Below are positions 6,940 through 62,779 of a DNA stretch of 64,000 nt, one piece after another; positions within the stretch are counted from its first letter, which is position 1; each line of letters starts with the position of its first letter. The notes below the pieces were generated by a model. That model was not told where the DNA came from. It did not search any database and saw only the letters and a list, made by a program, of their open reading frames with translations. A program made the translations under genes and the position numbers. The stretch covers positions 88,292 through 152,291 of the forward strand of contig CAZYCL010000004.1 in assembly GCA_964645795.1 (NCBI GenBank). The letters run 5' to 3'. Source of the DNA: an uncultured Planctomycetales bacterium (lineage in GTDB: Bacteria > Omnitrophota > Gorgyraeia > Gygaellales > Profunditerraquicolaceae).

Positions 6940-6953
6940 CAAAGGAGGCGGTT

Positions 6954-11864: not shown

Positions 11865-11896
11865 CCATAGAATGTAAACTAATAATAATATCCGGG

Positions 11897-11937: not shown

Positions 11938-11940
11938 TTT

Positions 11941-42580: not shown

Positions 42581-42585
42581 CGCTT

Positions 42586-44229: not shown

Positions 44230-44326
44230 CCCCCCCTCTTTTTTATAGACAACCCACGCTTAATATGTTATTTTAAATACTTAATTATTCCCTGCTGGAA
44301 AAAGCCCGAAAACTTTCGAAATCCGA

Positions 44327-45421: not shown

Positions 45422-46211
45422 GGCGACTATCGAAGGCATAAAGCAGGAGACCTCCAACATCAAGACCTTCAGCTTAAGCCTGGATGAGCAGTTTTCGTTT
45501 CGTACCGGACAGTTCGTGGAGATGACCGTCCCGGGCTTCGGTGAGGCGCCGTTTACCCCTTCCTCTGACCCGGGCGAGCATGGCAGGTTTGAGCTGACGG
45601 TAATGAAAGCGGGCAGGGTCACTGACAGGCTCCACAGGATGAATCCGGGCGATACCCTCGGTATCCGCGGCCCTTATGGCAAAGGCTATCCCCTGGATTA
45701 TTTCAAGGGCAAGGACATCCTGGTCGTCGGCGGAGGCGTGGGTCTGGCGCCGTTGCGCTCGCTTTTGTTGAGCCTTTTTTCGAATATCGACGCTTACCGC
45801 AGCGTGCTGCTCAGATACGGGGCGCGTACCTCCTCCGATATAGTATATAAAGATTTGATTCCCACATGGCAGAAGCCCGGAAAGACCGATATCGTTACTA
45901 CCGTAGATATCGGGGACCCTTCCTGGGCAGGCAGGGTGGGGCTGGTCACGACGGTATTGAACGACCTGCCGGTTGATATCACAAAAGCTGTATCAGTGGT
46001 CTGCGGGCCGCCGATCATGATGAAGTTCGTGACCCTGAAGCTTCTGGATCTGGGGTTCAGGCCTGCGGATATATTCCTGTCCATGGAGAAGAACATGTCC
46101 TGCGGCCTGGGTAAATGCGGACACTGCCGCGTAGGCAGGTACTACGCCTGCAAAGACGGCCCGGTGTTCACCTACGAAGAATTAAAGGATATACACGACA
46201 TCTGGGACTGA
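45393..46211 (+). CDS. AsrB / sulfhydrogenase-gamma (HydG)-like FAD/NAD(P)-binding oxidoreductase with C-terminal 2Fe-2S
   Basis: FAD-binding RFELTVMKAGRVTDRL, NAD-binding VVGGGVGLAPL and C-terminal CGLGKCGHCRVG...C 2Fe-2S motifs, as in PyrK/HydG/AsrB. Confidence 0.7.
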   Translation: MKRNIYQPVKATIEGIKQETSNIKTFSLSLDEQFSFRTGQFVEMTVPGFGEAPFTPSSDPGEHGRFELTVMKAGRVTDRLHRMNPGDTLGIRGPYGKGYPLDYFKGKDILVVGGGVGLAPLRSLLLSLFSNIDAYRSVLLRYGARTSSDIVYKDLIPTWQKPGKTDIVTTVDIGDPSWAGRVGLVTTVLNDLPVDITKAVSVVCGPPIMMKFVTLKLLDLGFRPADIFLSMEKNMSCGLGKCGHCRVGRYYACKDGPVFTYEELKDIHDIWD

Positions 46212-46297
46212 TCGTTAACCGTTGATCGGTTGCGTAGCTGGAAACCTCATGCGTAAAGATTTGAGCTACGAAACCCAAATGCGCAACACGGCTAAAC

Positions 46298-46792
46298 ATG
46301 AAACGACTCTTTATCGACCTGGAAGTTTGCGCGAAATGCCGGGAATGCAGGGTAGCCTGCGATTATTTCTGGCATGCGCAGAATAACGGCATCACTTCGT
46401 TAAGGGAGTATGCCATATTCGCCCTCCTTTGCCGCCATTGCGAAGAGGCGCCCTGTGTCAACGCCTGTTATCATAATGCGCTGGAGAGGACCGAAGACGG
46501 GCATCTGCGCAGGTACCGCATGCGCTGCACCAGCTGCCGGTCCTGCACCGTTGCCTGTCCGTTTGGGGTGATCTTCGAGGATTTTATTCCTTATCTTGAT
46601 TCCAGCTGCGATTATTGTCTGACTAAGGGCAGCCAGATCCCCCTTTGCGCAAAAACCTGCCCGGAGCATGCCATAGAGTTTAAAGAGGTCGGGGAGGATT
46701 TGGAAAAAGATATTTATCTGGTCGGCGAACACCTGGCCGTGCATACAAAGAGGTGGTCGCGCGAAGACGCACAGCCGCCCAAGAGAAAATAG
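46298..46792 (+). CDS. 4Fe-4S poly-ferredoxin (HycB/MbhN-like electron-transfer subunit)
   Basis: Multiple CxxCxxCxxxC clusters (CAKCRECRVAC, CRHCEEAPCVNAC, CTSCRSCTVACP, CDYCL...CAKTCP). Confidence 0.8.
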   Translation: MKRLFIDLEVCAKCRECRVACDYFWHAQNNGITSLREYAIFALLCRHCEEAPCVNACYHNALERTEDGHLRRYRMRCTSCRSCTVACPFGVIFEDFIPYLDSSCDYCLTKGSQIPLCAKTCPEHAIEFKEVGEDLEKDIYLVGEHLAVHTKRWSREDAQPPKRK

Positions 46793-46793
46793 G

Positions 46794-47708
46794 ATGGCAA
46801 AGTACATTTTTCAATACTTGGTTTTCCCCGGATTTCTGTTTGCGGCCTGTATGGGGCTTTTTGCCGGATGGTTTGACCGCAAGCTCTCCGCCCGCCTGCA
46901 ATGGAGGCTAGGTCCGCCCTGGTATCAGAATTTCATCGATATTATCAAGCTTCTGGGAAAGGAGACCATTATTCCCGAAGGGGCAGGGCTGACTTTTCTT
47001 CTCTCTCCTGCCCTGGCGCTGTTGAGCACTACCCTCGTGGCTACGCTGCTGGGCAGGGCCATTGCCATGCCTTTAGAGAGCGTTGTGGGAGACTTGATCG
47101 TCGCCTTGTATCTTTTGACCGTACCGGCGATAGCCCTGATTTGCGGCGCCAGCGCATCCCGTAATCCCCTGGCTTCAGTGGGTGCCTCCAGAGAGATGAA
47201 GATGGTCCTGGGATATGAGCTGCCGTTTCTTTTGTCGGTAGTCACCGTCATCATTAAAAGCAAAGGCTCTATACAATTAGGCCAGATCATCAATAACCAG
47301 ATAAACTTCGGCTCTACCATTTTCTCGTTATCCGGTATGCTGGCCTTTGTGGTGGCCGTATTCTGCGTGCAGGCAAAGCTCGGCTTTGTGCCCTTCGACG
47401 CCTCCGAAGCGGATCAGGAGATAATGGGCGGCACTTTGATCGAATACTCCGGAGCGGCGCTGGCGCTTTTTAAGCTGACAAGGGCAGTAGCGCTTTATAC
47501 GCTTGTGCTTTTTCTTATCGTATTATTCATGGGCCGGGATACAAGGGCGGCGTTCGTATTCATAAAGTTTGTCGGGATACTTACGGTATTTATACTTATT
47601 AAGAACACCAATCCGCGCCTGCGCATAGAGCAGGCGTTGAGGTTCTTCTGGGGGCCGATGACTGTGCTGGGGATAATTTCCGTGGTCCTGGCGGTTTTCG
47701 GAAGGTAG
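46794..47708 (+). CDS. group-4 hydrogenase membrane subunit (NuoH/HycD/MbhM-like)
   Basis: 304-aa polytopic protein with a NuoH-family pattern (RKLSARLQWRLGP...YLLTVP...GFVPFDASEADQEIMGG). Confidence 0.8.
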   Translation: MAKYIFQYLVFPGFLFAACMGLFAGWFDRKLSARLQWRLGPPWYQNFIDIIKLLGKETIIPEGAGLTFLLSPALALLSTTLVATLLGRAIAMPLESVVGDLIVALYLLTVPAIALICGASASRNPLASVGASREMKMVLGYELPFLLSVVTVIIKSKGSIQLGQIINNQINFGSTIFSLSGMLAFVVAVFCVQAKLGFVPFDASEADQEIMGGTLIEYSGAALALFKLTRAVALYTLVLFLIVLFMGRDTRAAFVFIKFVGILTVFILIKNTNPRLRIEQALRFFWGPMTVLGIISVVLAVFGR

Positions 47709-47711
47709 AAA

Positions 47712-48140
47712 ATGGACCTAAGGACAAAAGCGCTGCTTAATTCGATCTGGGTCTTTCACATAAGCGCCGGTTCCTGCAATAACTGCGATATCGAGATACT
47801 TGATTGCCTGACACCCAGGCACGATGTCGAGAGGTTCGGCATCCAGCTTGTCGGCAGCGTCCGCCATGCGGACGCTTTGCTTATTACCGGGGCGATGAAC
47901 AAAAAAGCCGTGCCGCGCATGAAAAAGCTCTATGAGCAGGCCCCCAAGCCCTGCGTCGTGATAGCTGTCGGCCAGTGCGCCCTTTCACAGCATATGTTCA
48001 AGGATAGTTACAACATGGTTGGGCCCCTGGATACGATACTGCCGGTGGATCTTTATATTCCGGGCTGCCCTCCGAAGCCGGAGGCGATAATCTCGGGAAT
48101 AGTCAAGCTTGTAAACAAAATAAAAGGCAGCAAGGTCTAA
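47712..48140 (+). CDS. [NiFe] hydrogenase small subunit (NuoB/HycG/MbhJ-like)
   Basis: Proximal-cluster Cys: GSCNNCDIE...AVGQCA...PGCPP. 142 aa. Confidence 0.85.
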   Translation: MDLRTKALLNSIWVFHISAGSCNNCDIEILDCLTPRHDVERFGIQLVGSVRHADALLITGAMNKKAVPRMKKLYEQAPKPCVVIAVGQCALSQHMFKDSYNMVGPLDTILPVDLYIPGCPPKPEAIISGIVKLVNKIKGSKV

Positions 48141-48141
48141 A

Positions 48142-48573
48142 ATGGATATGAGGGAGAAGGTAAAAGAGGAGCTGGGTTCTAAGATCAGGCAGTGGCAGGA
48201 ACGTTCCAGCAGGCGCATCTATATCAGTATCGATCAAGACCAGATAGTGCCTGCTGTAGATTTGTTCTTTAAGAAGCTGGAACTGAGGTTTTGCACGGCC
48301 AGCGCCTGCCAGAACCCCGAAGGCTTTGAAATGCTGTATTTCTTCAGCCACGATAAGGCGGGAGAGGTGTATGTCTTGCGCACTTTTCTTAACGACAAGG
48401 ACAAGCCGCAAATAAACTCCATTACCCCGCTTTTTGCGGGCGCCGAGTGGATAGAGCGCGAGATCTGGGAGTTGATGGGGATAGATTTTGCCGGTCACCC
48501 CAACCTTAAAAGGCTGCTTTTGGCGGATGAGTGGCCGCAGGGCGAGTACCCGCTAAGGAAAGAGAAGCATTAA
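48142..48573 (+). CDS. NuoC/HycE-N-terminal (30-kDa) like subunit of group-4 hydrogenase
   Basis: 143-aa NuoC-family fold pattern (TPLFAGAEWIEREIWELMGIDFAGHP). Confidence 0.75.
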   Translation: MDMREKVKEELGSKIRQWQERSSRRIYISIDQDQIVPAVDLFFKKLELRFCTASACQNPEGFEMLYFFSHDKAGEVYVLRTFLNDKDKPQINSITPLFAGAEWIEREIWELMGIDFAGHPNLKRLLLADEWPQGEYPLRKEKH

Positions 48574-48574
48574 T

Positions 48575-49765
48575 ATGTCGCATAAAGTCATAGTCCCGAT
48601 AGGGCCGTATCACCCTCTGCAGGAAGAGCCGGAGTTCTTCCGTCTTTATGTCGAGGGAGAGAAGGTCGTAGATATCGATATTATCATCGGTTACAATCAT
48701 CGCGGCATAGAAAAGCTTTCCGAATCCAAGCATTATGACCAGGTCGCCTATCTTGTAGAGAGGATCTGCGGGATATGCTCTTCCAGCCACCCTTACGCAT
48801 ACGTGTTGGCAGTGGAAGACATCCTGGGCGGTGAGCATAATATAGTTCCCGAGAGGGCCCTGTATATCCGCACGATAGTGGATGAGCTTCAGAGGATCCA
48901 CAGCCATCTTCTCTGGCTGGGGCTGGCCGGCCACTTCATCGGATACAATACGGTCTGGATGTGGGCCTGGAAGCACCGCGAGCCGGTATTGGATATGTTC
49001 GAGGCCATCACCGGCAACCGCAACAATTACGCGATGTTCAAGGTAGGCGGGGTGCGCCGCGACATAGAGGAAAACGATATCCCGATGCTTAAAAAAATGC
49101 TGGATGAGCTTGTGCCGGGGCTGGAGCTGTTCCGGGGGGCGGTCATGGATGACCCGGTAATACAGGCAAGGCTTAAAGGCGTGGGCATCCTTACCAAACA
49201 ACAGGCCATAGACTGGTGCGTGGTGGGCCCGACCGCAAGGGCCTCCGGGGTCAATATCGACGTGCGCCGCGATGAGCCTTACGGGGCTTACGAGAAAGTC
49301 AATTGGACCGTATTTTTGGAGAAAGACGGGGATGTTTTTGCCAAGACCATTATAAGGATCCTGGAGATGCTTGACAGCGTGCATATTATCCGCCAGTGCC
49401 TGGATAAGATGCCCAGGGGCCCGATAGACGCGGATGTAAAGGAGGTCCCTGTCGGAGAGGGTGTAGGCCGGGTCGAAGCGCCCCGGGGAGAATGTTTTCA
49501 TTATGTTGTAAGCGACGGCACAAACCGGCCGGTAAGGCACAAGATCAGGGCCCCAAGTTTTATGAACGTCGCCTCCGATAAGGTATCCGCTGTAGGCGGC
49601 ACGATATCCGATGCCGCCATAACCCTGGCGGCAGTAGACCCCTGTTACTGCTGCACGGAACGGGTGGCGGTCCTGAAAAAGAGCGATAGCAGCCGGATAT
49701 TGAACGGCTGGGATCTGATACGGCTTTCCCGGGAGAAGACCGATAGCCTGAAAAGAGGGGTATAA
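48575..49765 (+). CDS. group-4 [NiFe] hydrogenase large (catalytic) subunit
   Basis: N-terminal Ni-binding motif RICGICSSSH and C-terminal DPCYCCTER (DPCxxC) motif. NuoD/HycE/MbhL-like, 396 aa. Confidence 0.9.
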   Translation: MSHKVIVPIGPYHPLQEEPEFFRLYVEGEKVVDIDIIIGYNHRGIEKLSESKHYDQVAYLVERICGICSSSHPYAYVLAVEDILGGEHNIVPERALYIRTIVDELQRIHSHLLWLGLAGHFIGYNTVWMWAWKHREPVLDMFEAITGNRNNYAMFKVGGVRRDIEENDIPMLKKMLDELVPGLELFRGAVMDDPVIQARLKGVGILTKQQAIDWCVVGPTARASGVNIDVRRDEPYGAYEKVNWTVFLEKDGDVFAKTIIRILEMLDSVHIIRQCLDKMPRGPIDADVKEVPVGEGVGRVEAPRGECFHYVVSDGTNRPVRHKIRAPSFMNVASDKVSAVGGTISDAAITLAAVDPCYCCTERVAVLKKSDSSRILNGWDLIRLSREKTDSLKRGV

Positions 49766-49768
49766 AAA

Positions 49769-50389
49769 ATGCAGGAGCCGGAGAACGTCAAGGCAAAGAT
49801 TTCCGAGATGTCCGAGCTTGCACTGGCCATGTGGCAGCTGACGCACCGCGCGTTTATGGAGCACAACCTGGAGTTGTTTCCCTGGATATTGGATAAAGAG
49901 AACAGGCTTAACAATCTTGAGAAAGAGGTGAGCTCCGGACTTGTGGAATTCGGAAAAATGACCCACTCCGAAGAAGAAAAATCCAGGGCCATGCTTTACT
50001 CCGGGATAGCCGGAGATTTTGAGCTTATCGGTGATTACTGTAAGGATATGCTGGAGCGCGTCCAGATCAAGATAGAGGAGAAGCTGCTTTTCGCGCAAGA
50101 GTCGGTAGACGAGTATCAGGTGCTCTACAAGAGGACGGAGGACGCCCTTGCCGAGGTGGACTTCGCCTTAAAGCGCAGCAATCCTTCGCTGGTAAAAGAG
50201 GTGGCCCGCAAGGACGAGCATATCGATGCCCTGGTGGACGAGTACAGGAATAAGCACAATCAGCGCCTTATCGAAGGCAAATGCAGCCCTTTTGCCTGCA
50301 ATATGTTCCTTAATATGCTCGACTTTACCGCCGCCGTTTATTACCACACCAAGAAAATAGCCAGGAGCATGCTTAAGCTAAAAGAATGA
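49769..50389 (+). CDS. PhoU-like (DUF47 / Na-Pi-cotransporter-associated-type) helical protein
   Basis: 206-aa all-helical protein with paired PhoU-like repeats (…HRAFMEHNLELFPWILDKENRLNNLEKEV…, …ARKDEHIDALVDEYRNKHNQRL…). Confidence 0.45.
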   Translation: MQEPENVKAKISEMSELALAMWQLTHRAFMEHNLELFPWILDKENRLNNLEKEVSSGLVEFGKMTHSEEEKSRAMLYSGIAGDFELIGDYCKDMLERVQIKIEEKLLFAQESVDEYQVLYKRTEDALAEVDFALKRSNPSLVKEVARKDEHIDALVDEYRNKHNQRLIEGKCSPFACNMFLNMLDFTAAVYYHTKKIARSMLKLKE

Positions 50390-52062
50390 ACGGTATTTTT
50401 GTCCAGCCACTCTTCAAGTTTGATTATCTCAGCGCCCCGATAGCCGTGGCGATAGGGGTATTCTTTATTTTCACGCTTATCTACTCCCTGGCTTATATGC
50501 GCCAGAAGAAGGCAGGGCCCCTTTATTACCTTTACATTATTCTTACGGCAGCGGTATCCGTGGCGGCGGTTGCATCCAATAACCTTATCATGTTATTGGT
50601 ATTTTGGGGTTTCCTTGGGTTGCTTTTGTATCTTTTGATCAACTTCGGGGACGAAGAGGCGCCGAAAGCGGCAAAAAAAGCGATGGTGATAGTGGGCGGC
50701 ACCGATGCGATGATGGTCCTGGGGGTAGCGCTTATCTATTATCTGGGTTCAAGTTTTCAGTTTGATTCCGCGAGGCTGGCGATGGACAACGGCCTGGCGG
50801 CGCTGGCATATGTTTGTATCGCCATAGGTTGTTTTGCCAAGGCCGGCGCTATGCCTTTTCATTCCTGGATACCGGATTGCGCCCAGAGCGCGCCTATTCC
50901 GGTCACCGCATATCTGCCGGCTTCCCTTGATAAACTTCTGGGGATATACCTGTTGATACGCTGTATCGGGATATTCGAGATGAACACCGCCGCCAACGTA
51001 TTCCTGGTGATAGTCGGGATGGTGACGATCGTGGCGGCGGTGATGATGGCGCTGGTGCAGCATAACCTAAAGAGGCTTCTTGGGTATCACGCCGTCTCTC
51101 AGGTCGGCTATATGGTACTGGGTATAGGGACAGGCAACCCCATCGGCATTGCCGGCGGGCTGTTCCATATGCTCAACCACGCGCTCTATAAATCCTGCCT
51201 TTTCTTTACCGCCGGAAACGTAGAGCAGCGTACCAGGAGCCTGGAGCTGGATAAGCTCGGCGGCCTGGCCAAACGCATGCCCCTGACCTATGCGAGCGCG
51301 GTCATCTCCAGCTTCTCAATATCCGGGATACCGCCGCTCAACGGATTCTTTTCAAAATGGATGATCTATCAGGGGATAATCTACTGTTTGATAAAAAACT
51401 CCGGTAAACCGCTCAACTTTGTTTATATCTTTGCGATACTGGCAGCGATGTTCGGCAGCGTCCTGACCCTGGCCAGTTTTATGAAGATGCTGCACGCCGT
51501 CTTCCTGGGCCAGAGGCTTGATTCCGGGTGCGAGAATATAAAAGAGGTCTCCTGGCTGATGTGGCTGCCGTGCGTATTCTTTTCGCTGACCTGCGTGTTA
51601 TTCGGGGTATTCGCCTTCTCCTTGCCGCTAAAACATTTTATCTTTCCCGCCGTATCCCTCTATCAGCCGGTTAGCGAGCAGGGGTTGTTCGGCAGATGGT
51701 CTCCGGTGCTGGCGACCTGCCTCATGCTGGCGGGATTGGTGTTGGGGATGCTGTTTTTTTATTTAGGCAATCTCAAAAAGCTTCTTCGTCGGGATTCAAG
51801 CTTTACCGGAGGCGAATGGGAGCAGTTAGAGGGGTCCGATATAGTCAGCGGGACGGAGTTTTACAACTCCATAAAGGAGTACGGCGCGCTTTCAACGGTT
51901 TATAAGCTGGCCCAGAAAGGGACGTTCGATATCTACGCCCAGGCAAAGAAGATCTTCATATTTTCAAAAGGCCTTATTTTCCTGCATAACGGTATATTGC
52001 CTACGTATCTGGTGTGGATGCTTCTGGGTATGATCGGGCTTTTTGCTTTTCTGACGCTCTAA
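50386..52062 (+). CDS. Mrp/NuoL-like antiporter-type membrane subunit (MnhA/MbhH-like)
   Basis: 558-aa polytopic protein with NuoL/MnhA family motifs (FHSWIPDCAQSAPIPVTAYL, FHMLNHALYKSCLFFTAGNV). Confidence 0.85.
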   Translation: MNGIFVQPLFKFDYLSAPIAVAIGVFFIFTLIYSLAYMRQKKAGPLYYLYIILTAAVSVAAVASNNLIMLLVFWGFLGLLLYLLINFGDEEAPKAAKKAMVIVGGTDAMMVLGVALIYYLGSSFQFDSARLAMDNGLAALAYVCIAIGCFAKAGAMPFHSWIPDCAQSAPIPVTAYLPASLDKLLGIYLLIRCIGIFEMNTAANVFLVIVGMVTIVAAVMMALVQHNLKRLLGYHAVSQVGYMVLGIGTGNPIGIAGGLFHMLNHALYKSCLFFTAGNVEQRTRSLELDKLGGLAKRMPLTYASAVISSFSISGIPPLNGFFSKWMIYQGIIYCLIKNSGKPLNFVYIFAILAAMFGSVLTLASFMKMLHAVFLGQRLDSGCENIKEVSWLMWLPCVFFSLTCVLFGVFAFSLPLKHFIFPAVSLYQPVSEQGLFGRWSPVLATCLMLAGLVLGMLFFYLGNLKKLLRRDSSFTGGEWEQLEGSDIVSGTEFYNSIKEYGALSTVYKLAQKGTFDIYAQAKKIFIFSKGLIFLHNGILPTYLVWMLLGMIGLFAFLTL

Positions 52063-52066
52063 GGCT

Positions 52067-52588
52067 ATGGAAATACATCTAATCCTGATATTCATGATCT
52101 GTTCGAGCATCGTGGCCGTAAGGACCAGGGATCTTATCTCAAGCGTTATCGCCCTGAGCGCAACCGGCCTGGGCCTGTGCCTGGCGTTCCTTGTGCTTAA
52201 GGCGCCCAACCTGGCCATAACCAGGCTGGTCATCGAGATACTTTGCGTGATCATCCTTATCAGGGCCACGATCAATAAAGACCTGCCTCTGGTAAAGGAC
52301 GGCCGCTGGATGTTCAACACCGTATCGACCCTGGTGTTTATCGCCGTTTTCCTGGCTTTTGCCTACATTGCGCTAAAGCACTTGCCTGAATTCGGCTCGC
52401 CCCTTATGCTCGTCTCCCGGGATTATCTGGCTATGGGCGTTGAAAAAACCGGCTCCGCCAATATCGTTACCGCCATAAGCTTTGATTTTCGCGGGCTCGA
52501 CGCCCTGGGCGAGGCAGCCATATTGTTTGCAGCAATACTTGGTGTCCTGGCCATAACTAGAAGGACGGGCAAGACCGATGAAAAATAA
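52067..52588 (+). CDS. Mrp antiporter subunit B-like membrane protein (MnhB/MbhD-like)
   Basis: Small polytopic protein in the position and shape of MnhB-domain subunits. Confidence 0.6.
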   Translation: MEIHLILIFMICSSIVAVRTRDLISSVIALSATGLGLCLAFLVLKAPNLAITRLVIEILCVIILIRATINKDLPLVKDGRWMFNTVSTLVFIAVFLAFAYIALKHLPEFGSPLMLVSRDYLAMGVEKTGSANIVTAISFDFRGLDALGEAAILFAAILGVLAITRRTGKTDEK

Positions 52589-53012
52589 AGAACCCGGAAT
52601 GACCCTGATAGTCAAGACCATAACGCGCCTGACCGTAGGCCTCATCTTGATCTACGCCATCTACATAGTCCTGCAGGGGCATATGAGCCCGGGCGGCGGT
52701 TTTGACGGCGGGGTGATCATCGCGCTCTCTTTTATCCATTTGATGCTGGCTTTCGGCAAAGATAAGGTCGTGGCTACCATAAGCGAGAAAAGAGGCCTGT
52801 TGCTCTCAAGCGTCGGCCTGACCTTGTTCTTATTCCTGGCGCGCCTGGGTTTTGTCAGGGAGGGCATCATACATAGCGAGTCGGGGCACTTCAAGCTATT
52901 CGGCGGCGGGCTCATTCCGTTATACGAAGTGTTTATCGCCCTTATGGTGGGGGCGGGGCTTTTTACCATATTCCTGGCACTGGCTTTGTTTACCGGAGAG
53001 AAGAAGCAATGA
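52578..53012 (+). CDS. Mrp antiporter subunit B-like membrane protein (MnhB/MbhE-like)
   Basis: 144 aa, 4 TM, the second MnhB-domain paralog as in Mbh operons. Confidence 0.6.
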   Translation: MKNKEPGMTLIVKTITRLTVGLILIYAIYIVLQGHMSPGGGFDGGVIIALSFIHLMLAFGKDKVVATISEKRGLLLSSVGLTLFLFLARLGFVREGIIHSESGHFKLFGGGLIPLYEVFIALMVGAGLFTIFLALALFTGEKKQ

Positions 53013-53347
53013 GCGCGTATTTTCTGTGTCTGGTGATGTTTGGCATCGGGCTTTACTGCATTTTGAGGAAAAGGAACATTATCAAGATGATCATTGGGCT
53101 TGGGATAATCGATTATTCGGTCAACCTGTTTTTTGTCCTGATCGGCTACCGCTCTAACGGCCGTTCCCCGATATTGGCGCCTGACCAGGACATCCTTAAT
53201 ATGGTCGATCCCCTGCCGCAAGCGGTGGTTCTGACCACCATAGTCATAGGATTGGCGGTAACGATGGTGGTAGTGGCGATAGCGGTAAGGATCTATGAGA
53301 AGTACGGCACATTCGATATCACCAAAATAAAGAGGCTGAAAGGTTGA
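53009..53347 (+). CDS. Mrp antiporter subunit C (MnhC/NuoK-like)
   Basis: 112 aa, 3 TM, NuoK/MnhC-like (MIIGLGIIDYSVNLFFVLIGY). Confidence 0.7.
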   Translation: MSAYFLCLVMFGIGLYCILRKRNIIKMIIGLGIIDYSVNLFFVLIGYRSNGRSPILAPDQDILNMVDPLPQAVVLTTIVIGLAVTMVVVAIAVRIYEKYGTFDITKIKRLKG

Positions 53348-54834
53348 AGACGCTCATATTCTTTATATTCATACCGCTGGGTTTTGCCTGCGCGATAGCC
53401 CTGGCAGGCCCCCGGTCCCGGCGCTTTGCCGAGGCCGCCGCAAACCTCGCCGGCCTGGTAATGGCGTCCTTTTCGCTCTACCTGGTGCAGATAGTCGCCG
53501 CGCATAAAAGCGTTGTCTACAAGATCGGCGGATGGTCATCGAGCCTGGGGATATGCCTGGTCGCCGACGGGCTGTCGGCCCTGATGCTGTTGCTGATCAA
53601 CTGCGTGTCAATGCTTGTGATGGTCTACTCCGTAACTTACATGAACGGGTACAGCGACCGGTGGAAGTTCTACGCGCTTTTCATGCTTTTATTGGCCGGG
53701 CTTAACGGCTTGGCTTTAAGCGGCGACATGTTCAACCTCTACGTATTCCTGGAGCTTACCTCCATTACCGCTTATATATTGGTGGCCTTCGGCATCTCCC
53801 CCGAGAGCCTGGAGGCATCCTTTAAATATGCGATCATGGGGACGCTAGCTTCTCTTTTTATCCTGCTGGGCATCGCTTTCGTGTACGCCCACGCCTCGAC
53901 CCTTAACATGGCCGGCATTGCCGCAGCGTTAACAGAGAGGCCCAACCCTGTCCTTACGGGCTTCGTATCGGTTTTGTTCCTGGCCGGCTTCGGGTTGAAG
54001 GCCGCGCTCGTGCCGTTCCACGCCTGGCTTGCCGACGCCCACTCGTCGGCGCCCTCTCCGGTCTCGGCACTGCTTTCGGGAGTGGTGATCAAGACCCTCG
54101 GCGTCTATGCAATAATGCGCGTTTTCTTCAATGTGCTTGGGGTTTCTGATAAGCTTGGCCTGGCATTGATGGTCCTGGGTTCGCTATCGATGATATTGGG
54201 GGCGCTTATGGCCATAGCCCAGAACGACATAAAAAGGATGTTTGCTTATTCAAGCGTTAGTCAGGTCGGCTACATAATCTTTGCCCTTGGCATAAACACG
54301 CCCCTGGCGATATTGGGCGCGGTATTCCATATGCTTAACCACGCCATCTTCAAGCCGCTGCTGTTTTTAAATGCCGGCTCCATCGAACGCGCCACCGGCA
54401 CGCGCGAGTTAAGCAGGATGGGAGGATTGAATAAAGATCTCCACTTTAGCGGATTTGCCGGCCTGATAGGCGCGATGAGTATTTCCGGAGTGCCTCCTTT
54501 TGGAGGATTCTGGAGCAAATTGATCATAATTATCGCTGCCCTGCAATCAGGGCACCTGGCATTCGCCATTATAGCGGTACTGGTAAGCATCGTGACCCTT
54601 GCTTATTACCTGAAATTCCAGACTTTTGCTTTCTTCGGTTCTCCCCGCCAGAAGCACGCGCAGTTAAAGGAAGCCTCTTGGTTCATGAAGCTGGCGATGT
54701 TTATTTTGGTGCTGGGCTGCGTCTTTTCGGCGCTGCTGGTCATACCGGGATTCGGACAGCTTATTGACTCGGCGGCGCAGGCGCTGCTATCGGGTGCCTA
54801 TTATAAAGAAACGGTTTTGGGGTTGTCGGGATGA
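53344..54834 (+). CDS. Mrp antiporter subunit D (MnhD/NuoM/N-like)
   Basis: 496 aa with FHAWLADAHSSAPSPVSALLSGV and FHMLNHAIFKPLLFLNAG motifs. TTG start overlapping the upstream stop. Confidence 0.85.
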   Translation: MKTLIFFIFIPLGFACAIALAGPRSRRFAEAAANLAGLVMASFSLYLVQIVAAHKSVVYKIGGWSSSLGICLVADGLSALMLLLINCVSMLVMVYSVTYMNGYSDRWKFYALFMLLLAGLNGLALSGDMFNLYVFLELTSITAYILVAFGISPESLEASFKYAIMGTLASLFILLGIAFVYAHASTLNMAGIAAALTERPNPVLTGFVSVLFLAGFGLKAALVPFHAWLADAHSSAPSPVSALLSGVVIKTLGVYAIMRVFFNVLGVSDKLGLALMVLGSLSMILGALMAIAQNDIKRMFAYSSVSQVGYIIFALGINTPLAILGAVFHMLNHAIFKPLLFLNAGSIERATGTRELSRMGGLNKDLHFSGFAGLIGAMSISGVPPFGGFWSKLIIIIAALQSGHLAFAIIAVLVSIVTLAYYLKFQTFAFFGSPRQKHAQLKEASWFMKLAMFILVLGCVFSALLVIPGFGQLIDSAAQALLSGAYYKETVLGLSG

Positions 54835-55328
54835 ACAAGATAAGGATAATACTGTTTTTAGAAACTTTCGCGCTCTGGCTGTTATTGAGCGGCTCCATAG
54901 ACCTTGAGCATGTAGCGGTAGCGGTTGCCTTGGGCGTGCTGGTCTCATATCTGACGGCTGACCTGTTTTCGCCGAAGCTTAAGGTATTCAGGGAGCCGAA
55001 GCGTTATTGCTGGCTCGTTTATTATATAGGCCTGTTCATCTGGGAGTGTATAAAGGCAAACATCGACGGCGCCTATCGCGTGATACATCCGCAGCTCCCC
55101 ATAAACCCCGGGATAGTCAAGGTCAAAACTACGCTTCAGTCCAATCTGGGGCTTACTTTCCTGGCTAACTCCCTTACCCTTAAACCGGGCACCATGACGG
55201 TGGACGTGGATAAGGAGGGCGGGTTTTTGTATATACACTGGGCCAATGTCGAGGCGACAGACGTGGATAAGGCCACTGAGCTTATCGTCAGGAAATTCGA
55301 GACGGTGCTTAAGAGGGTGTTCGAATGA
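54831..55328 (+). CDS. Mrp antiporter subunit E (MnhE-like)
   Basis: 165 aa with an N-terminal 2-TM region plus a soluble domain, MnhE-like. Position in the Mrp module supports the call. Confidence 0.6.
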   Translation: MNKIRIILFLETFALWLLLSGSIDLEHVAVAVALGVLVSYLTADLFSPKLKVFREPKRYCWLVYYIGLFIWECIKANIDGAYRVIHPQLPINPGIVKVKTTLQSNLGLTFLANSLTLKPGTMTVDVDKEGGFLYIHWANVEATDVDKATELIVRKFETVLKRVFE

Positions 55329-55684
55329 GAAGGGCGCGCTGGTTTTTCGGTTTGCTGGGTATAGCGGGAGTTTTCGCGGGGATCGTTATCCTGCCTTTGC
55401 CGTCTCTTTTGGAATGGCAATCGCCGCTTTCAAGAGTGATGTTCTTTTTCCTGGTTTTTTGCGGGACGTTCTGCCTGTGGCGCATACTAAAAGGCCCGAC
55501 CGCCGCGGACAGGGCGGTGGCGCTGGACATACTGGGGATACTCATCGTCGGTTTCTGCGCGATACTGGGGATAAATACCGGCAGGGACTGGTATATCGAT
55601 ATCGGCATCGCCTGGGTGCTCCAGAGCTTTATTTCGATACTGGCCCTGAGCAAATATTTGGAAGGCAAGGGATTCGATGAATGA
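55325..55684 (+). CDS. Mrp antiporter subunit F (MnhF-like)
   Basis: 119 aa, 3 TM, in the MnhF position. Confidence 0.6.
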   Translation: MRRARWFFGLLGIAGVFAGIVILPLPSLLEWQSPLSRVMFFFLVFCGTFCLWRILKGPTAADRAVALDILGILIVGFCAILGINTGRDWYIDIGIAWVLQSFISILALSKYLEGKGFDE

Positions 55685-56012
55685 AACGATAGGGTTCATT
55701 TTCATAATTATCGGGATAACCTTCGATTTCTTCGGTTGTTTGGGGCTCGTAAGGTTTCCCGATGTGTATAACCGGCTGCACTCTTCGATAAAATGCGTGA
55801 CCCTTGGGACCTGCAGCATCCTCTTCGGGCTGTTTTTATACAAAGGTTTTTCGCCTTGCGGCATCAAGGCGCTGCTTTGTATCGTGTTTTTGGTTTTGAC
55901 CGCTCCGGTTTCGGCGCACGCGCTGGCGCGTTCCGCGCATCGGTCCGGGGCCAAGCTCTGGGAAAAATCGGTTTGCGATAAGTATGCAGAGGACAAAGAT
56001 GCGCTATCCTAA
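55677..56012 (+). CDS. Mrp antiporter subunit G (MnhG-like)
   Basis: 111 aa, 3 TM, MnhG-like (MNETIGFIFIIIGITFDFFGCLGLVRFPDVYNRLH). Confidence 0.7.
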   Translation: MNETIGFIFIIIGITFDFFGCLGLVRFPDVYNRLHSSIKCVTLGTCSILFGLFLYKGFSPCGIKALLCIVFLVLTAPVSAHALARSAHRSGAKLWEKSVCDKYAEDKDALS

Positions 56013-56610
56013 GCTAAGAGAGTTAAAAGAAGCGATAAAGGCGCTTATCAGGGGGCCGTATACCAGCCGCTTCCCGCGCCAGCCGCACCGGCCTTATGAG
56101 AAGTTCAGGGGAAGGCCGTACTTCTATGAAGAAGAATGTACGGGTTGCGGCGCCTGCGCGCAGGTCTGTCCTACGGGGGCCATAAGCCTTGAGGATATAG
56201 TGGATGAGAAAGGGGCAAGGCGCGTCTTGACCATACGCTGGGATATCTGTATTTTTTGCGGTAACTGTCAGGCAAACTGCCTTACCGCAAAAGGGATAGT
56301 GCTTTCCCGGGAGTTTGATTTCTCGACCGTCGGCAAGAGAGAGGATCTGAGGCAGAAGATCGAAAAGAGGTTTGTTCTATGCGAATGCTGCGGGGCCCCC
56401 ATCGTGCCGGCCGATCAGTATAAATGGGTAAGCTTGCGGCTTGGGCCGCTATGTTTTGCCAATGCCTCGCTCTTGCTTTCTTATTTACGGCTCCAGGGGC
56501 TGGCCGAACCGGATACGGGCGAGCGCCCCAAGGAAGCCGGATTACTTCGTTCTGACCGCATAAGGCTTTTGTGCCCTGCCTGCCGCCGCCAGGCGGTAAT
56601 CACTTCATAG
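55984..56610 (+). CDS. NuoI/MbhN-like 2x[4Fe-4S] ferredoxin subunit
   Basis: CTGCGACAQVCP and CIFCGNCQANC motifs. An alternative ATG start lies at 55999. Confidence 0.8.
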   Translation: MQRTKMRYPKLRELKEAIKALIRGPYTSRFPRQPHRPYEKFRGRPYFYEEECTGCGACAQVCPTGAISLEDIVDEKGARRVLTIRWDICIFCGNCQANCLTAKGIVLSREFDFSTVGKREDLRQKIEKRFVLCECCGAPIVPADQYKWVSLRLGPLCFANASLLLSYLRLQGLAEPDTGERPKEAGLLRSDRIRLLCPACRRQAVITS

Positions 56611-57940: not shown

Positions 57941-58402
57941 ATGAAAAAATGTGCGGTAGTGTTGGGCGTGCTGGTTTTGGCCATTGCGGTTACGGGTTGC
58001 TCTAAGAATGACGATATGATGGGGGAACCGCCTGAGAATATGACCATGGATGAGTTGGGGGTTATCGGCAGCGATCAGAAGGCCCCCGGAGCACAGGCTG
58101 CGGCTTCAGCGCAAGGGGATCCGGCATCCGCACAGGAGATGCCCGCGGTCGCCCAGCCCGTGATTCCTGATCCGCAAGCAATGCCGATATCAGCCGGCGT
58201 GGGTTCGCCGCAAGAGATACAGGCAGCGCTAAAGAACGCCGGTTTTTACAGCGGCAAGATTGACGGTAAGATCGGGCCGATGACGAAGCAGGCGATTATC
58301 GAGTTCCAGAAAGCCAATAAGCTGAAAGCCGACGGAAAAGTGGGGCCCAGGACCTGGGAAGTTTTAAGCAGGCATCTGGGCGAGTCCGCTTCTTCGCGAT
58401 AG
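57941..58402 (+). CDS. lipoprotein with C-terminal peptidoglycan-binding (PG_binding_1) domain
   Basis: Lipobox LAIAVTGC and a C-terminal AALKNAGFYSGKIDGKIGPMTKQAIIEFQKANKLKADGKVGPRTWEVL repeat typical of PG-binding domain 1. Confidence 0.8.
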   Translation: MKKCAVVLGVLVLAIAVTGCSKNDDMMGEPPENMTMDELGVIGSDQKAPGAQAAASAQGDPASAQEMPAVAQPVIPDPQAMPISAGVGSPQEIQAALKNAGFYSGKIDGKIGPMTKQAIIEFQKANKLKADGKVGPRTWEVLSRHLGESASSR

Positions 58403-58448
58403 CGGCTTTACTTGAAAATATATAAATAATATAGTATAATTGTCTTAG

Positions 58449-58762: not shown

Positions 58763-59983
58763 ATGACAAGATTCCCGAACGGTTTTCTATGGGGGGCGGC
58801 GACAAGCGCCCATCAGGTCGAAGGCAATAATACCAATAGTGACTGGTGGGAATGGGAGCAGCGCGGGCTCCTGAAATATCCTTCCGGAGTATCCTGCCGC
58901 CAATATGAATTGTTCCGCCAGGATTTTGATTTGGCCGGCTCTCTTGGCCACAACGCTCACCGTTTTTCCGTGGAGTGGGCCCGCATCGAGCCCGCCGAAG
59001 GCCGTTACTCGGATATAGAGATCGATCATTACCGGCAGGTTGTTTCGGCATTAAGAGAGCGTGATTTAGAGCCGATCGTGACCCTGCATCATTTTACCAA
59101 TCCTGCATGGTTTCTTAAAAAAGGCGGCTGGGCTAACGCAGCCAGCGCAGACATCTTTCTGGGCTATGCCCGCAGGGTGATCGAGGCCCTGGCAGGGCAG
59201 GTTCGTTTCTGGGTTACCATAAACGAGCCGACGATTTATACATATTTTTCCTACCTGGAAGGAACCTGGCCTCCTCAGGTAAGATCCGTTTATAAGGCCT
59301 GGAAGGTCATGCGCAACATGCGGCGTGCCCATATCAAGGTTTACCGGTTCCTGCACAGCTATTATAAGGATAAAGGACTGGCGCCTCCCCTTGCAGGCGC
59401 GGCCAATAATATGCAGTTTTACCAGCCGTCACCCGATACGGCCCGGAACAGGTTCTGCGCTTATTTAAGGGACCGCCTGTTCAATCTCGGATTCACGAAA
59501 AAGCTCTTCAGGGCAGGCGCCCTTGACTATATCGGCCTTAATTACTACAGCAGGTGCCTGGTTGACGCAAGACGCTGGTCTTTAAAAAGCATGCTTACGG
59601 ATAACGGTTTTGACGGATCGGGCACCGTGAAAAAGAACTCTCTGGGTTGGGACATCTATCCGCAAGGCCTATACCGGGTGCTCATGGGGCTCAAACGCTT
59701 CGCAGTCCCGGTGCTGATACTTGAAAACGGCATCTGTACTCACGACGACGAGTTGCGCTGGGAGTTTATCCGGGAGCATCTGCAGCAGGCAGCCAGGGCC
59801 ATGCAGGAGGGAGTAAGGCTATTGGGTTATATTTACTGGTCATTGACGGACAACTTCGAATGGGACAAAGGCTTTGAGCCGCGTTTCGGGCTTATTGAGG
59901 TTGATTACGATACTTCAAAACGCACCGTCCGCGCCAGCTCCCGGAGTTTTTGCCGGGTCTGCCGGACTAATGAGCTGATATGA
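58763..59983 (+). CDS. glycoside hydrolase family 1 beta-glucosidase
   Basis: N-terminal FLWGAATSAHQVEGN, acid/base NEP (VTINEP) and nucleophile ENG (LILENGI) motifs. Confidence 0.9.
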   Translation: MTRFPNGFLWGAATSAHQVEGNNTNSDWWEWEQRGLLKYPSGVSCRQYELFRQDFDLAGSLGHNAHRFSVEWARIEPAEGRYSDIEIDHYRQVVSALRERDLEPIVTLHHFTNPAWFLKKGGWANAASADIFLGYARRVIEALAGQVRFWVTINEPTIYTYFSYLEGTWPPQVRSVYKAWKVMRNMRRAHIKVYRFLHSYYKDKGLAPPLAGAANNMQFYQPSPDTARNRFCAYLRDRLFNLGFTKKLFRAGALDYIGLNYYSRCLVDARRWSLKSMLTDNGFDGSGTVKKNSLGWDIYPQGLYRVLMGLKRFAVPVLILENGICTHDDELRWEFIREHLQQAARAMQEGVRLLGYIYWSLTDNFEWDKGFEPRFGLIEVDYDTSKRTVRASSRSFCRVCRTNELI

Positions 59984-61977
59984 TACCGCTGGATAAAGAC
60001 GCCATCCTCCAGGAAATACCCCTCTTTTCATCGCTTGCCGAATCCGAACGCGAGCTGGTCAAGGAGAGGATGCGGTTCGTCGAACATAAAAAAGGGGAGA
60101 TGGTCTATCGCGAGAACGACCCTCCTGATGCTTTTTATTGCCTGGTGCAGGGAAGGGTCGAGATCTACACTCAGGACGAAAACGGCAACAAGACTGTCCT
60201 CGAATACCTGCATCACGGCAAGTACTTCGGGATCATATCGCTGTTGACCAATGAACCCCACTCCGTCTCCGCGCAGGCGTTGAACGACTGCCTTACCCTT
60301 CTGATAAAGAAAGACGATTTTAACGTTCTGCTTAAAAGCATCCCGTCTCTTTCCATAGACCTCAGCCGCACTCTCTCCCGCCGCCTGAAAAGAAAAGACG
60401 TGCATCAGAAGAGGGTATTCGAGAGCACCATAATCTCCGTATTCAGCTCGTACTCTCAGGCCGGAAAGACCGTTTATGCGCTGAACCTCGCCATAAGCCT
60501 GAGCAATGAGACCCGTAAATCGGTGGTCATTCTTGATGTCGCTCCCCGCGACAAGGTCCATAGCCTGCCCCGCAGGCTCAAGGTCGAAGAGTACAGGGTG
60601 ATGGATCTTTCGGACAATGCCGCGGACAACGCCGCCGTGGTCAGGGATTACATCTGCCGCGACCGGTTCGGCATAGATATGGCTTGTTTTTCTTACGAAC
60701 CTCAGGATGACTCCTGCGTAAGCAGGCTGGTCGCTATCTTAAGCCTTCTGGTCAATGACTACCATTACCTTATCCTTGACCTGCCGTCGCTTTTGGACCG
60801 TCCGGTATACAGCATGCTCAACCAATCCGACCTCATCCATACCCTTACCAGCCCGGAACCGGTAGATTTAAGCCGCACCCATCAGCTGATCGAAAGGCTG
60901 AAAACCGAGTTCGGGTTCCATGAAGACAAGATAAAGATCATCATCAACGAGTATAAGTATTCCAAGCTTTCGCATGAAGAGCAGATGGAGCTTCTGGATT
61001 GCCAGGTATTCGCCACCCTTCCCAAGATCGACTTCGAAGCCCCGGATATCCTTATACTTGACGATCCGGCTTGCGAATACTCCAAGGTCATCAAGCGCAT
61101 AGCGCGCAGGATAGGGGATTGTCTTGTGGGGCTGGTGCTGGGAGTGGGGCTGGGTTACGGTTTCTGCCATATCGGGGTGCTCAAGGTCATAGAGGAGGAA
61201 AAGATCCCCATAGATGTCATCGCCGGCTCCAGCATCGGAGCGCTTATCGCCAGCCTCTGGGTCATCGGCAAGTCCAGCTCCGAGATACTCGAGATTACCA
61301 GCGAATTCAAAGAGCCCAAGCATATCTGGAATCTCATTGACCTTACTTTCCCGCGCCTTGGTTTTATCAAGGGCAACAAGCTTCACAGGTTCCTTAAGAA
61401 GCACCTGGGCAATAAGAGTTTTCATGACATAAAGCTGCCGCTTAAGATCATCGCCAGCGACTTAAAGAGGAAGGAGCCGAGGATCCTGGACAAGGGGTCG
61501 TTGGTCGATGCGATAATGGCCAGCTGCGCCATGCCGGGAGTATTTATGCCGATGAGGCAAAAAGAGGAGTTTCTCTTCGACGGAGGAGTGATCAATCCGT
61601 TGCCTACCGAGCCGTTATTCAGGATGGGCGTAAAAAAGATCATTGCCGTCAATGTCACCCCTTCACGCGAGGACATAATGCGTCAATATGAAAGGCTCAG
61701 GCAGCAGATGGGGGTAACCGAGAACGAGCGTCCGGGATGGAAGCAGCGCATAAAAAATATTTTCAAAAATAATATTGTGGATATAATATTCAGCAGCTTC
61801 GAGGTCCTTCAGTCCGAGGTGGCCGAAAAGGAGGGGCTGCTGGCCGATGTTGTGCTGCATCCGGATACCCACGGGCTTTATTGGCTGGAGCTGCATAAGG
61901 CAGCGGAGTTCTCCAGAAGGGGGGAAGACGAGGCGCGCAGGCAGATCGATAAGATAAAGCAGTTGGTAGAAGAGTGA
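59980..61977 (+). CDS. cyclic-nucleotide-binding domain / P-loop (MinD/CpaE-like) domain / patatin-like phospholipase fusion protein
   Basis: N-terminal cNMP-binding fold (FYCLVQGRVEIY...GKYFGIISLLTNEPHSVSAQAL). Central deviant P-loop (SSYSQAGKTVYALNLAISL). C-terminal patatin with oxyanion hole GVGLGYGF, GxSxG nucleophile AGSSIGA and catalytic DGG (FDGGVINPLP). Confidence 0.75.
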   Translation: MIPLDKDAILQEIPLFSSLAESERELVKERMRFVEHKKGEMVYRENDPPDAFYCLVQGRVEIYTQDENGNKTVLEYLHHGKYFGIISLLTNEPHSVSAQALNDCLTLLIKKDDFNVLLKSIPSLSIDLSRTLSRRLKRKDVHQKRVFESTIISVFSSYSQAGKTVYALNLAISLSNETRKSVVILDVAPRDKVHSLPRRLKVEEYRVMDLSDNAADNAAVVRDYICRDRFGIDMACFSYEPQDDSCVSRLVAILSLLVNDYHYLILDLPSLLDRPVYSMLNQSDLIHTLTSPEPVDLSRTHQLIERLKTEFGFHEDKIKIIINEYKYSKLSHEEQMELLDCQVFATLPKIDFEAPDILILDDPACEYSKVIKRIARRIGDCLVGLVLGVGLGYGFCHIGVLKVIEEEKIPIDVIAGSSIGALIASLWVIGKSSSEILEITSEFKEPKHIWNLIDLTFPRLGFIKGNKLHRFLKKHLGNKSFHDIKLPLKIIASDLKRKEPRILDKGSLVDAIMASCAMPGVFMPMRQKEEFLFDGGVINPLPTEPLFRMGVKKIIAVNVTPSREDIMRQYERLRQQMGVTENERPGWKQRIKNIFKNNIVDIIFSSFEVLQSEVAEKEGLLADVVLHPDTHGLYWLELHKAAEFSRRGEDEARRQIDKIKQLVEE

Positions 61978-61995: not shown

Positions 61996-62484
61996 ATGGG
62001 GGCGTGCGGAAAAAGGGGATCGGTTGGCATGTGGCTTCGGCCCGTTGCTCTATTGTTTGCATTCATGATGGGCTTGACAGGTTGCGCTTCAGTCTGCGAG
62101 GTGGGCCGCGGCATTGCCGGTACTTCCACCAAGATACTGGAGGAGGGCAGGGCAAATGCCTTAAAACAGGATTTCAATTGCCAATACCCTATTTGTTACG
62201 ACCTGGTAAAGGGCTGCCTGAAGAAGGCCGGCGCTTATATCTATCGCGAAGACAGGGCCGCAGGCATGATAGCGTTTTATGTCTCTGAAACGGATACTAC
62301 GCCGGTAGGCATTTTCTTCCGGGACGGATCGGGCGTTACGTCCGTGGAGGTATCCAGCCCCAGTACTTTCGCCAAAGAGATGATCATGGAAAAGATAAGC
62401 GCGGACCTCAAGGACATGGCGGTCAAGAATGAAAAAATGGCTCCGGCGCAGGAAAGCGAGGCAATGGCCGATGAAACAAAATAA
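61996..62484 (+). CDS. lipoprotein, function unknown
   Basis: Signal peptide with lipobox LTGCASV, 162 aa. Confidence 0.55.
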   Translation: MGACGKRGSVGMWLRPVALLFAFMMGLTGCASVCEVGRGIAGTSTKILEEGRANALKQDFNCQYPICYDLVKGCLKKAGAYIYREDRAAGMIAFYVSETDTTPVGIFFRDGSGVTSVEVSSPSTFAKEMIMEKISADLKDMAVKNEKMAPAQESEAMADETK

Positions 62485-62779
62485 AAAAGATATCAAGTCG
62501 CTTATCGCGGACTGTCATGCGATAGCCAGGGATAAAGGGTGGTGGGAGGCGGATCGTAACGACGGAGAGCTCATCGCCCTTATGCACTCCGAGCTTTCCG
62601 AGGCCCTCGAGGCGATGCGCAATCACGCAAACCTTGAGCTTATAGCCGAAGAGCTGGCCGATTGCTGCATACGTATCTTCGATTACTGCGGGGCGCGCGG
62701 CATCGATCTTGAAGCGGCGCTGGCCAAGAAGATAGAGTACAACAAGGGCCGTCCCTACAGGCATGGCAAGAAATTTTAA
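62471..62779 (+). CDS. MazG-like nucleotide pyrophosphohydrolase domain protein
   Basis: LIALMHSELSEALEA...EELADCCIRIFD EExx(E/D) metal-binding helix pair. ~100 aa. ATG 62471 overlaps the upstream gene end. Confidence 0.65.
   Translation: MKQNKKDIKSLIADCHAIARDKGWWEADRNDGELIALMHSELSEALEAMRNHANLELIAEELADCCIRIFDYCGARGIDLEAALAKKIEYNKGRPYRHGKKF

Follow-up and report, generated by a model that had tools for sequence, protein, structure and literature searches.

The 64,000-nucleotide window analysed here, a stretch of contig CAZYCL010000004.1 from an uncultured bacterium of the phylum Omnitrophota, encodes at 59980..61977 of its forward (+) strand a protein of 665 residues with an ATG start that unites a cyclic nucleotide-binding (CNB)-type sensor, a P-loop domain resembling MinD/ParA and a patatin lipase in one polypeptide. 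In our judgement this fusion protein is rather likely to be a cytoplasmic, sensor-gated lipid acyl hydrolase of the Omnitrophota acting at the entry to lipid catabolism. The open reading frame (ORF) call confirms the gene as real, and a Pfam scan bears out the three-domain order that an earlier sequence-only reading of the window had claimed for a single polypeptide: cNMP_binding (residues 34-119, E 1.7e-23) is followed by CbiA, the MinD/ParA nucleotide-binding family (residues 152-349, E 9.4e-8; AAA_31 stays sub-threshold), and then by Patatin (PF01734, residues 385-546, E 2.2e-29). The AF2 model is globular with a pLDDT of 85.1; a low-confidence linker (residues 139-146, 60394..60417; pLDDT <50) leads from the CNB C-helix to the central domain. 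Fusions of cNMP and patatin domains are already known, and the Omnitrophota variant with an inserted MinD-like domain is an uncharacterised, widespread protein made of familiar parts; full-text literature searches turned up neither a CNB / MinD-like / patatin architecture nor the Omnitrophota family itself, which public databases list under generic automatic names only. The inserted P-loop domain is thus foreign to the described architectures of the neuropathy target esterase (NTE) and of CapV, as the sequence-only reading had held.

The catalytic end of the protein (residues 383-664; 61126..61971, on the + strand like every feature of the gene and its cluster given below) is an RssA/PlpD-type patatin-like lipid acyl hydrolase module that has the patatin α/β fold and scores above the gathering threshold of PF01734. 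The GxSxG and DGG motifs that had been picked out from the sequence alone hold up well: the nucleophile elbow GSSIG (G416-S-S418-I-G420; 61225..61239) supplies Ser418 and the DGG motif (61579..61587) supplies the catalytic Asp534, so that the Ser-Asp dyad is in place, and Ser418, Asp534 and Gly535 are each invariant in 106/106 deep representatives of the family. The glycine-rich oxyanion loop GVGLGYG (61141..61161) is atypical; in a manual register against PlpD, Gly390 and Gly394 are invariant while Val389 stands for Gly and Tyr393 for Arg/Lys, and across the same 106 sequences position 393 is mostly Leu, Phe or Tyr (28, 27 and 18, together 73) and in 22 cases Arg or Lys (17 and 5). Against the NCBIfam RssA model (NF007623), residues 383-664 cover model positions 6-298 of 301 at 106.1 bits, far under the 272-bit equivalog cutoff, and the module is, by this comparison, related to RssA without being an RssA orthologue. 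The CBASS lipase equivalog (NF041079) scores 24.2 bits against a cutoff of 200 bits; PlpD and RssA are clearly nearer to the module than CapV or CapE. RssA (YchK) occurs on its own, PlpD forms the passenger part of a secreted, autotransporter-like protein, and neither carries CNB or P-loop domains; the fusion protein also differs from them by the Tyr that replaces the Arg of the glycine loop.

The proposed link with lipid catabolism is carried by gene context. Altogether 48 full-length loci were examined, with 34 divergent loci (25-43% identity), and in 20 of these 34 the lipase gene has genes for β-oxidation or fatty-acid activation on its own strand no more than 7 kb away, often in overlap with it, in at least five arrangements. 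One cluster (locus L007) runs from glycerol kinase and glycerophosphodiester phosphodiesterase (GDPD) through the lipase gene to 3-hydroxyacyl-CoA dehydrogenase (3HCDH), enoyl-CoA hydratase (ECH), the β and then the α subunit of the electron transfer flavoprotein (ETF), an unassigned gene, acyl-CoA synthetase (ACS) and an α/β-hydrolase; judged by its gene families, it reads as a near-complete phospholipid catabolic route. Shorter versions are found in L010, L011 and L021 (lipase, 3HCDH, ECH, ACS, with the α/β-hydrolase also present in L010 and L011) and in L009 (lipase, ETF-β, ETF-α). In eight loci a VLCAD/ACAD9-type acyl-CoA dehydrogenase gene lies directly upstream of the lipase gene, and in one of them (L027) its stop overlaps the lipase start. 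Linkage that is rearranged yet persistent is a classic signature of functional coupling, here between the lipase and β-oxidation.

In the lineage of the window itself the partner is a different one. A 406-residue glycosidase of family GH1 and BGPh type (58763..59983; PF00232, E 1.4e-78) is encoded immediately upstream, and its stop overlaps the ATG of the lipase gene (ATGA), an overlap from which the two genes are predicted to be translationally coupled. The enzyme matches PDB 1vff end to end (E 4.8e-98; next best match 6.9e-72), and BGPh glycosidases are membrane-associated and prefer hydrophobic, lipid-like aglycones (PMC4687101). The GH1 gene is directly upstream of the lipase gene in all 13 loci of the same clade that have upstream sequence (13/13), with a lipoprotein gene and a MazG-like gene downstream. 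The GH1 gene (58763-59983) had been absent from the sequence-only account of the neighbours.

The N-terminal CNB-type (CAP/CRP-like) domain, with its C-helix, spans residues 8-136 (60001..60387); it has the CNB β-barrel fold and matches the PF00027 profile. Whether the pocket retains the Glu and Arg through which canonical CNB domains hold their ligand had been raised as a check, and neither is kept. In a HMMER alignment of the phosphate-binding cassette FGIISLLTNEPHSVSA (60226..60273) to a solved CNB domain, Ile85 takes the place of the Glu that binds the ribose 2'-OH and His94 that of the Arg that binds the cyclic phosphate. His94 is invariant in the 77 aligned members of the clade, and among the 106 deep representatives this position is His in 83 and Arg in 13. 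The canonical cassette FGEM[AS]LL..[EQL]PR[SN]A[ST] is kept in the deepest relatives (25-31% identity), those of Nitrospirota, Desulfobacteraceae and Anaerolineae included. By its distribution, the Arg-to-His replacement would be a derived hallmark of a large Omnitrophota clade, and the Glu-to-Ile replacement a later change in a sub-clade that includes the protein studied here. Because the pocket is derived at both positions, it probably does not take cAMP or cGMP as its ligand in the classical mode. An N-terminal CNB domain that controls an output domain is also a feature of Bd1971 of Bdellovibrio, a CNB-regulated EAL phosphodiesterase, and of the Pycsar effectors (PDB 6hq4 and 8jsk are among the matches); the fusion protein differs from these in its output domain and in having both the Glu and the Arg replaced, whereas their solved CNB domains bind cAMP/cGMP or cCMP/cUMP.

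The central domain (residues 149-380; 60424..61119) has a SIMIBI P-loop fold of the MinD/ParA type. It is accordingly more than the NTE-type linker that the sequence-only reading had considered as the alternative to its P-loop domain. The nearest NCBIfam models are archaeal MinD (E 8.7e-9) and bacterial MinD (E 3.8e-6), and the domain belongs beside the SIMIBI deviant-Walker-A ATPases MinD, FlhG, FleN, ParA, BcsQ and TadZ (PDB 3ea0), from which it differs in being an internal domain of a larger enzyme. An alignment to Soj (8jmj) locates the Walker A variant SSYSQAGKT (60445..60471), the Walker A' Asp186 (60535-60537) and the Walker B region YLILDLP with Asp267 (60766..60786), both Asp residues matching those of Soj. 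The description of the P-loop as a deviant one stands in part: Gly162-Lys163-Thr164 is retained, but the KGGxxGK[ST] signature is broken, its signature Lys being Tyr158 and its Gly-Gly being Ser159-Gln160, and the motif varies or decays from clade to clade. While the P-loop, Asp186 and Asp267 are invariant or nearly so within the clade of the protein, Walker A takes the form KGIGKT in L008, KGSGSST (with no P-loop Lys) in the clade linked to acyl-CoA dehydrogenase, and is fully decayed in others, SSYSxAGKT being a further form; of the 106 sequences of the deep alignment, 31 have Lys163 and 52 have Asp267, and Asp186 is variable too. Yet the domain as such is kept throughout the family, and even the forms of 570-630 residues that have no Pfam CbiA match retain some 180-250 residues between cNMP and Patatin. 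This suggests that its conserved role is a structural or coupling one. Nucleotide binding may be plausible only in some clades, the present one included, given its GKT, Asp186 and Asp267; in many others the clade-specific changes to Walker A indicate a likely pseudo-ATPase. The helix at residues 366-378 (EYSKVIKRIARRIG) was considered as a MinD-type amphipathic membrane-targeting helix and rejected, as it presumably takes the place of the ordinary last helix of the ParA/MinD fold, directly ahead of the patatin domain.

Put together, these features suggest how a sensor-gated entry to lipid catabolism could work. The fusion protein would strip acyl chains from phospho- or glycolipids by NTE-like phospholipase B or lysophospholipase chemistry; the released fatty acids would be activated by acyl-CoA synthetase and passed to β-oxidation, and the head group would be handled by GDPD and glycerol kinase or, in the lineage of the window, by the lipid-glycoside GH1 enzyme. 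As uncontrolled cytoplasmic phospholipase activity is lethal, such an enzyme would be expected to be gated, and the N-terminal CNB-type domain may sense a ligand and do the gating, with the MinD-like module, in the role of a scaffold or a means of dimerisation, passing the signal on to the lipase. Oligomers are formed by CRP-type C-helices, by MinD-like domains and by patatins of the PlpD/CapV type alike, so that the protein would probably pass the signal on as a dimer. Neither the sequence nor the model shows an N-terminal signal peptide or a membrane segment, no dedicated transmembrane (TM) predictor having been run, and the CNB domain forms the very start of the protein. A secreted lipase used in predation was rejected, since the protein has no signal peptide and opens with its CNB domain.

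Several points weigh against a place at the entry to lipid catabolism. Gene context is an indirect guide to function. In 14 of the 34 divergent loci, some of them on short contigs, no recognised lipid gene lies within 7 kb, and many loci come from related metagenome-assembled genomes (MAGs), so that the counts are partly non-independent. The window comprises 57 ORFs, and 40 of the 56 others, all but the 16 shortest, were scanned against Pfam; no β-oxidation gene occurs among these 40, and the lipid link in this lineage thus rests on the type of the GH1 enzyme and on homology to the clades linked to β-oxidation. The lipid-aglycone preference of the GH1 enzyme is itself read solely from its likeness to BGPh, and the atypical oxyanion loop (Val389, Tyr393) could mean that substrate or activity differs from those of the characterised patatins.

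The family itself is deep and, judging by the sequences collected, almost wholly confined to the Omnitrophota, as a vertically inherited, lineage-defining chromosomal protein. A word-indexed search finds at least 947 homologues, and the top 120 are full-length with 65-82% identity; all of those that carry an organism name are Candidatus Omnitrophota/Omnitrophica, and the JGI label of the top homologues is "NTE family protein". When 1.84 billion representatives clustered at 50% identity are searched exhaustively, more than 100 of them align end to end (approximately residues 5-665), at 66% to 28% identity. To place the members taxonomically, a profile search was combined with look-ups of clusters and with a scan in which each GTDB species was represented by one genome. 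Down to about 30% identity the family again stays within the Omnitrophota, apart from a few MAGs automatically labelled Planctomycetes or Verrucomicrobia and one labelled just "bacterium"; full-length outliers are rare (Desulfobacteraceae, Anaerolineae, Nitrospirota), and the remaining matches are stand-alone RssA-like patatins. The species-representative genomes agree, with full-length matches almost only in Omnitrophota. Variant architectures comprise four CNB domains with a patatin domain, and REC, CNB and patatin. In the list of 80 loci no isolate name appears twice, a result that fits a single copy per genome. Within the clade, mean identities are 72.5% for the MazG-like protein, 63.8% for the lipase, 55.1% for GH1, 45.7% for the lipoprotein and 42.0% for a peptidoglycan (PG)-binding protein, and the identities of the cluster genes rise and fall in step across the loci, as expected of a vertically inherited and constrained chromosomal gene cluster. 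The sequence-only reading had named two findings that would speak against it, a central region with no P-loop fold and orthologues that are universally conserved housekeeping esterases: the fold proves real, and the orthologues are indeed broadly conserved, syntenic and vertically inherited, within a single phylum. Such phylum-wide syntenic inheritance argues for a housekeeping or metabolic role.

A tenable though less likely alternative is membrane-lipid homeostasis, in which an NTE/PNPLA6-like housekeeping phospholipase B would turn over or remodel the cell's own membrane lipids on an intracellular signal. The JGI name and the strong conservation across the phylum suit it, as does the envelope character of the conserved cluster with its peptidoglycan-binding and DUF3568-like lipoproteins. 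In L008 MlaE, MlaF and MlaD, components of Mla retrograde transport, come after the lipase gene in this order, with one unassigned gene between MlaE and MlaF, and in L001 and L003 a CDP-alcohol phosphatidyltransferase and PAP2 lie a few genes away. NTE and PNPLA7 are, moreover, CNB-bearing hydrolases of phospholipids and lysophospholipids (PMC5704489). However, the dominant and repeatedly rearranged link is to β-oxidation and acyl-CoA synthetase genes (20/34), which is more naturally catabolic. The two readings overlap, as freed fatty acids could be recycled either way.

In terms of architecture, the comparison with the eukaryotic NTE/PNPLA6-PNPLA7 is close and incomplete. These lysophospholipases are anchored by a TM segment and carry three CNB domains ahead of the patatin domain (PMC5704489). 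The fusion protein shares with them the CNB-type domain or domains placed N-terminally to a patatin with a Ser-Asp dyad, the cytoplasm-facing catalytic domain and, by analogy, a proposed role in the deacylation of phospholipids or lysophospholipids (PMC5704489). It differs in having no N-terminal TM anchor and one CNB domain instead of three, and so falls outside NTE proper; it also has a MinD/ParA-fold domain between sensor and lipase, which the described architecture of NTE does not, a patatin domain nearest to RssA and PlpD, and a cassette whose Arg has become His. The plainer cNMP-patatin architecture is one that we take Rv2565 and Rv3728 of Mycobacterium tuberculosis to have. Both are listed as uncharacterised lipolytic enzymes (PMC10865251).

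A more elaborate version of the gated lipase, which we regard as doubtful, is a three-input switch: the retuned CNB domain would detect some metabolite that is neither cAMP nor cGMP and that may be under the control of the co-conserved MazG-like pyrophosphohydrolase, the MinD-like domain would respond by nucleotide-dependent dimerisation or membrane docking, and the patatin would thereby be licensed at the membrane. If true, such a switch would govern how fast phospho- or glycolipids are used as fuel by the Omnitrophota, a phylum with many ultra-small, host-dependent members, and the family, its MinD-like domain decayed in several clades, would record the turning of an ATPase switch into a passive scaffold.

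Spatial targeting as the main control, with the central domain an active MinD/FlhG-type ATPase whose ATP-dependent dimerisation positions the lipase at the membrane or at a particular cellular site while the CNB domain modulates the cycle, in place of allostery, seems quite unlikely. The signature Lys of the ATP-sandwich dimer is Tyr158 here, the P-loop Lys occurs in just 31/106 and the Walker B Asp in about half of the deep family although the domain is always kept, and no C-terminal amphipathic membrane-targeting helix can be identified in what is an internal domain. An active ATP switch of the MinD type is possible for the clade of the window and cannot be the mechanism of the family as a whole.

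Anti-phage abortive infection by a cyclic-nucleotide-activated, membrane-destroying phospholipase, in the manner of the CBASS effectors CapV/CapE or of the Pycsar CNB effectors, is highly improbable, given the loss of the canonical cNMP contacts, a CBASS_lipase score of 24 bits against a 200-bit cutoff with PlpD/RssA clearly closer, conserved synteny with metabolic genes, cluster genes whose identities co-vary, a phylum-wide rather than patchy distribution, and the want of any cyclase among the 40 scanned ORFs of the window or beside the lipase gene in the 48 full-length loci. The search for cyclases in the wider neighbourhood, which the sequence-only reading had proposed, found no nucleotide cyclase (Guanylate_cyc, GGDEF or DisA-type) among those 40 ORFs and none adjoining the lipase gene among the called genes of L001, L003, L005 and L007-L011; none appeared in the rest of the 48 loci either, where the comparison was made solely with reference neighbour proteins and ten Pfam-scanned ORFs. 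PADLOC gave domain-level matches only and, with no cyclase found and a metabolic context, a defence-system reading was rejected. CapV and CapE bind their signal within the patatin protein, have neither a CNB nor a P-loop domain, are encoded in mobile defence islands next to a CD-NTase and act by killing the cell, whereas the fusion protein has no cyclase partner that could be found, no adjacent CD-NTase and a conserved metabolic synteny; nor does it have the Pycsar arrangement, in which a PycC pyrimidine cyclase adjoins a CNB domain joined to a TIR or TM effector. The analogy to second-messenger-activated defence effectors implied at the outset is therefore not supported by the pocket contacts, by the search for a cyclase or by the patatin, which is RssA/PlpD-like rather than CapV-like.

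The sensor-gated, catabolic lipase that we favour bears on a widespread and uncultured phylum, nearly all of whose physiology has been deduced from genomes. In the phylum-level Omnitrophota genome studies that were searched, lipases, phospholipids and lipids are unmentioned, and fatty acids appear once, with regard to short-chain acids; a strongly conserved sensor-gated lipase tied repeatedly to β-oxidation suggests that the regulated use of lipids is a core trait of the Omnitrophota. For enzymology, the family would offer a natural case in which a MinD/ParA-fold module mediates the control of a patatin lipase, together with a CNB pocket retuned off cAMP and cGMP, and both points bear on the regulation of NTE-type lipases, the mammalian ones included. 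Should the protein be an ordinary constitutive esterase, the gain would chiefly be one of annotation.

The remainder of the cluster flanks the GH1 and lipase genes on both sides. A PG_binding_1 lipoprotein (57941..58402; PF01471, E 1.6e-19), usually conserved upstream of GH1, is followed by the best sigma-70-like promoter match (58412..58440, 11/12) upstream of the GH1 gene, which is a possible, if weak, candidate for the operon start. Downstream, AAGGAGGA provides a ribosome-binding site 18 nt past the stop of the lipase gene for a conserved lipoprotein (61996..62484, lipobox LTGC) that is DUF3568/Flpp3-like with a KA1-like fold. This lipoprotein is Omnitrophota-specific and has no Pfam match; its model (pLDDT 86.8) shows a KA1 / DUF3568 (Flpp3) / BamC-like α+β domain and, by its predicted shape, appears akin to folds that bind hydrophobic ligands. 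The small MazG-like protein that comes next (62429..62779; likely start ATG 62471, 102 residues) lies in conserved synteny, overlaps the 3' end of the lipoprotein gene and is the most highly conserved of the cluster; its matches are weak (Pfam MazG, E 0.0043, below the cutoff; PDB 1vmg, E 0.0034; MazZ, 0.038).

The window around the cluster is ordinary chromosome, with genes for thiamine, NAD, folate and homocysteine biosynthesis, BirA, TonB receptors, histidine kinases, a CheA-like protein and an Mrp/Mbx-type complex. Most of its genes are on the + strand, and nearly all of it shows a positive GC skew. A block at approximately 22.7-44.2 kb is rich in signalling genes: two paralogous hybrid histidine kinases (PAS-HisKA-HATPase-REC-REC; 774 and 767 residues) lie there at 22710-25031 and 37874-40174, along with further kinases and the CheA-like protein (42577-44226). 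The Mrp/Mbx-type membrane complex, with NADHdh, two Proton_antipo_M, MnhE/F/G and ferredoxin-like subunits, occupies approximately 44300-56600, upstream of the cluster.

Some further neighbours recur in the divergent Omnitrophota loci. Genes with PilZ domains (the c-di-GMP receptor type), a YajQ gene and a PilZ-M48 peptidase fusion are found around the lipase gene in several of them (L007, 3890-4249, 4249-4746 and 5190-5543; L009, 2729-3109, 5062-5457 and 10926-11369; L011, 13990-15615), which hints at second-messenger signalling nearby, though no cyclase accompanies them. In L009 a protein of metallo-β-lactamase fold (11620-12291), 2.6 kb downstream of the lipase homologue, matches Pfam Anti-Pycsar_Apyc1, the type of a cyclic-nucleotide phosphodiesterase. 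Giant ORFs adjoin the lipase homologue in L025 (9219-14672, 1817 residues) and L037 (9235-15492, 2085 residues), and part of a 2440-residue ARMT1-like protein (1-4096) lies directly beside it in L011, in agreement with reports of very long Omnitrophota proteins. A short-chain dehydrogenase/reductase (adh_short) gene is directly upstream in L022, L023 and L030 (approximately 6100-6990) and a few kb upstream in six other loci. Outside the phylum, the loci L056-L088 of Acidobacteriota, many of them Terriglobales MAGs, carry a stand-alone RssA-like patatin gene, and 2-6 kb upstream of it the opposite strand encodes a homologue of 3-hydroxyacyl-CoA dehydrogenase; this pairing is probably the inherited synteny of one lineage, yet it echoes the link between lipase and β-oxidation.

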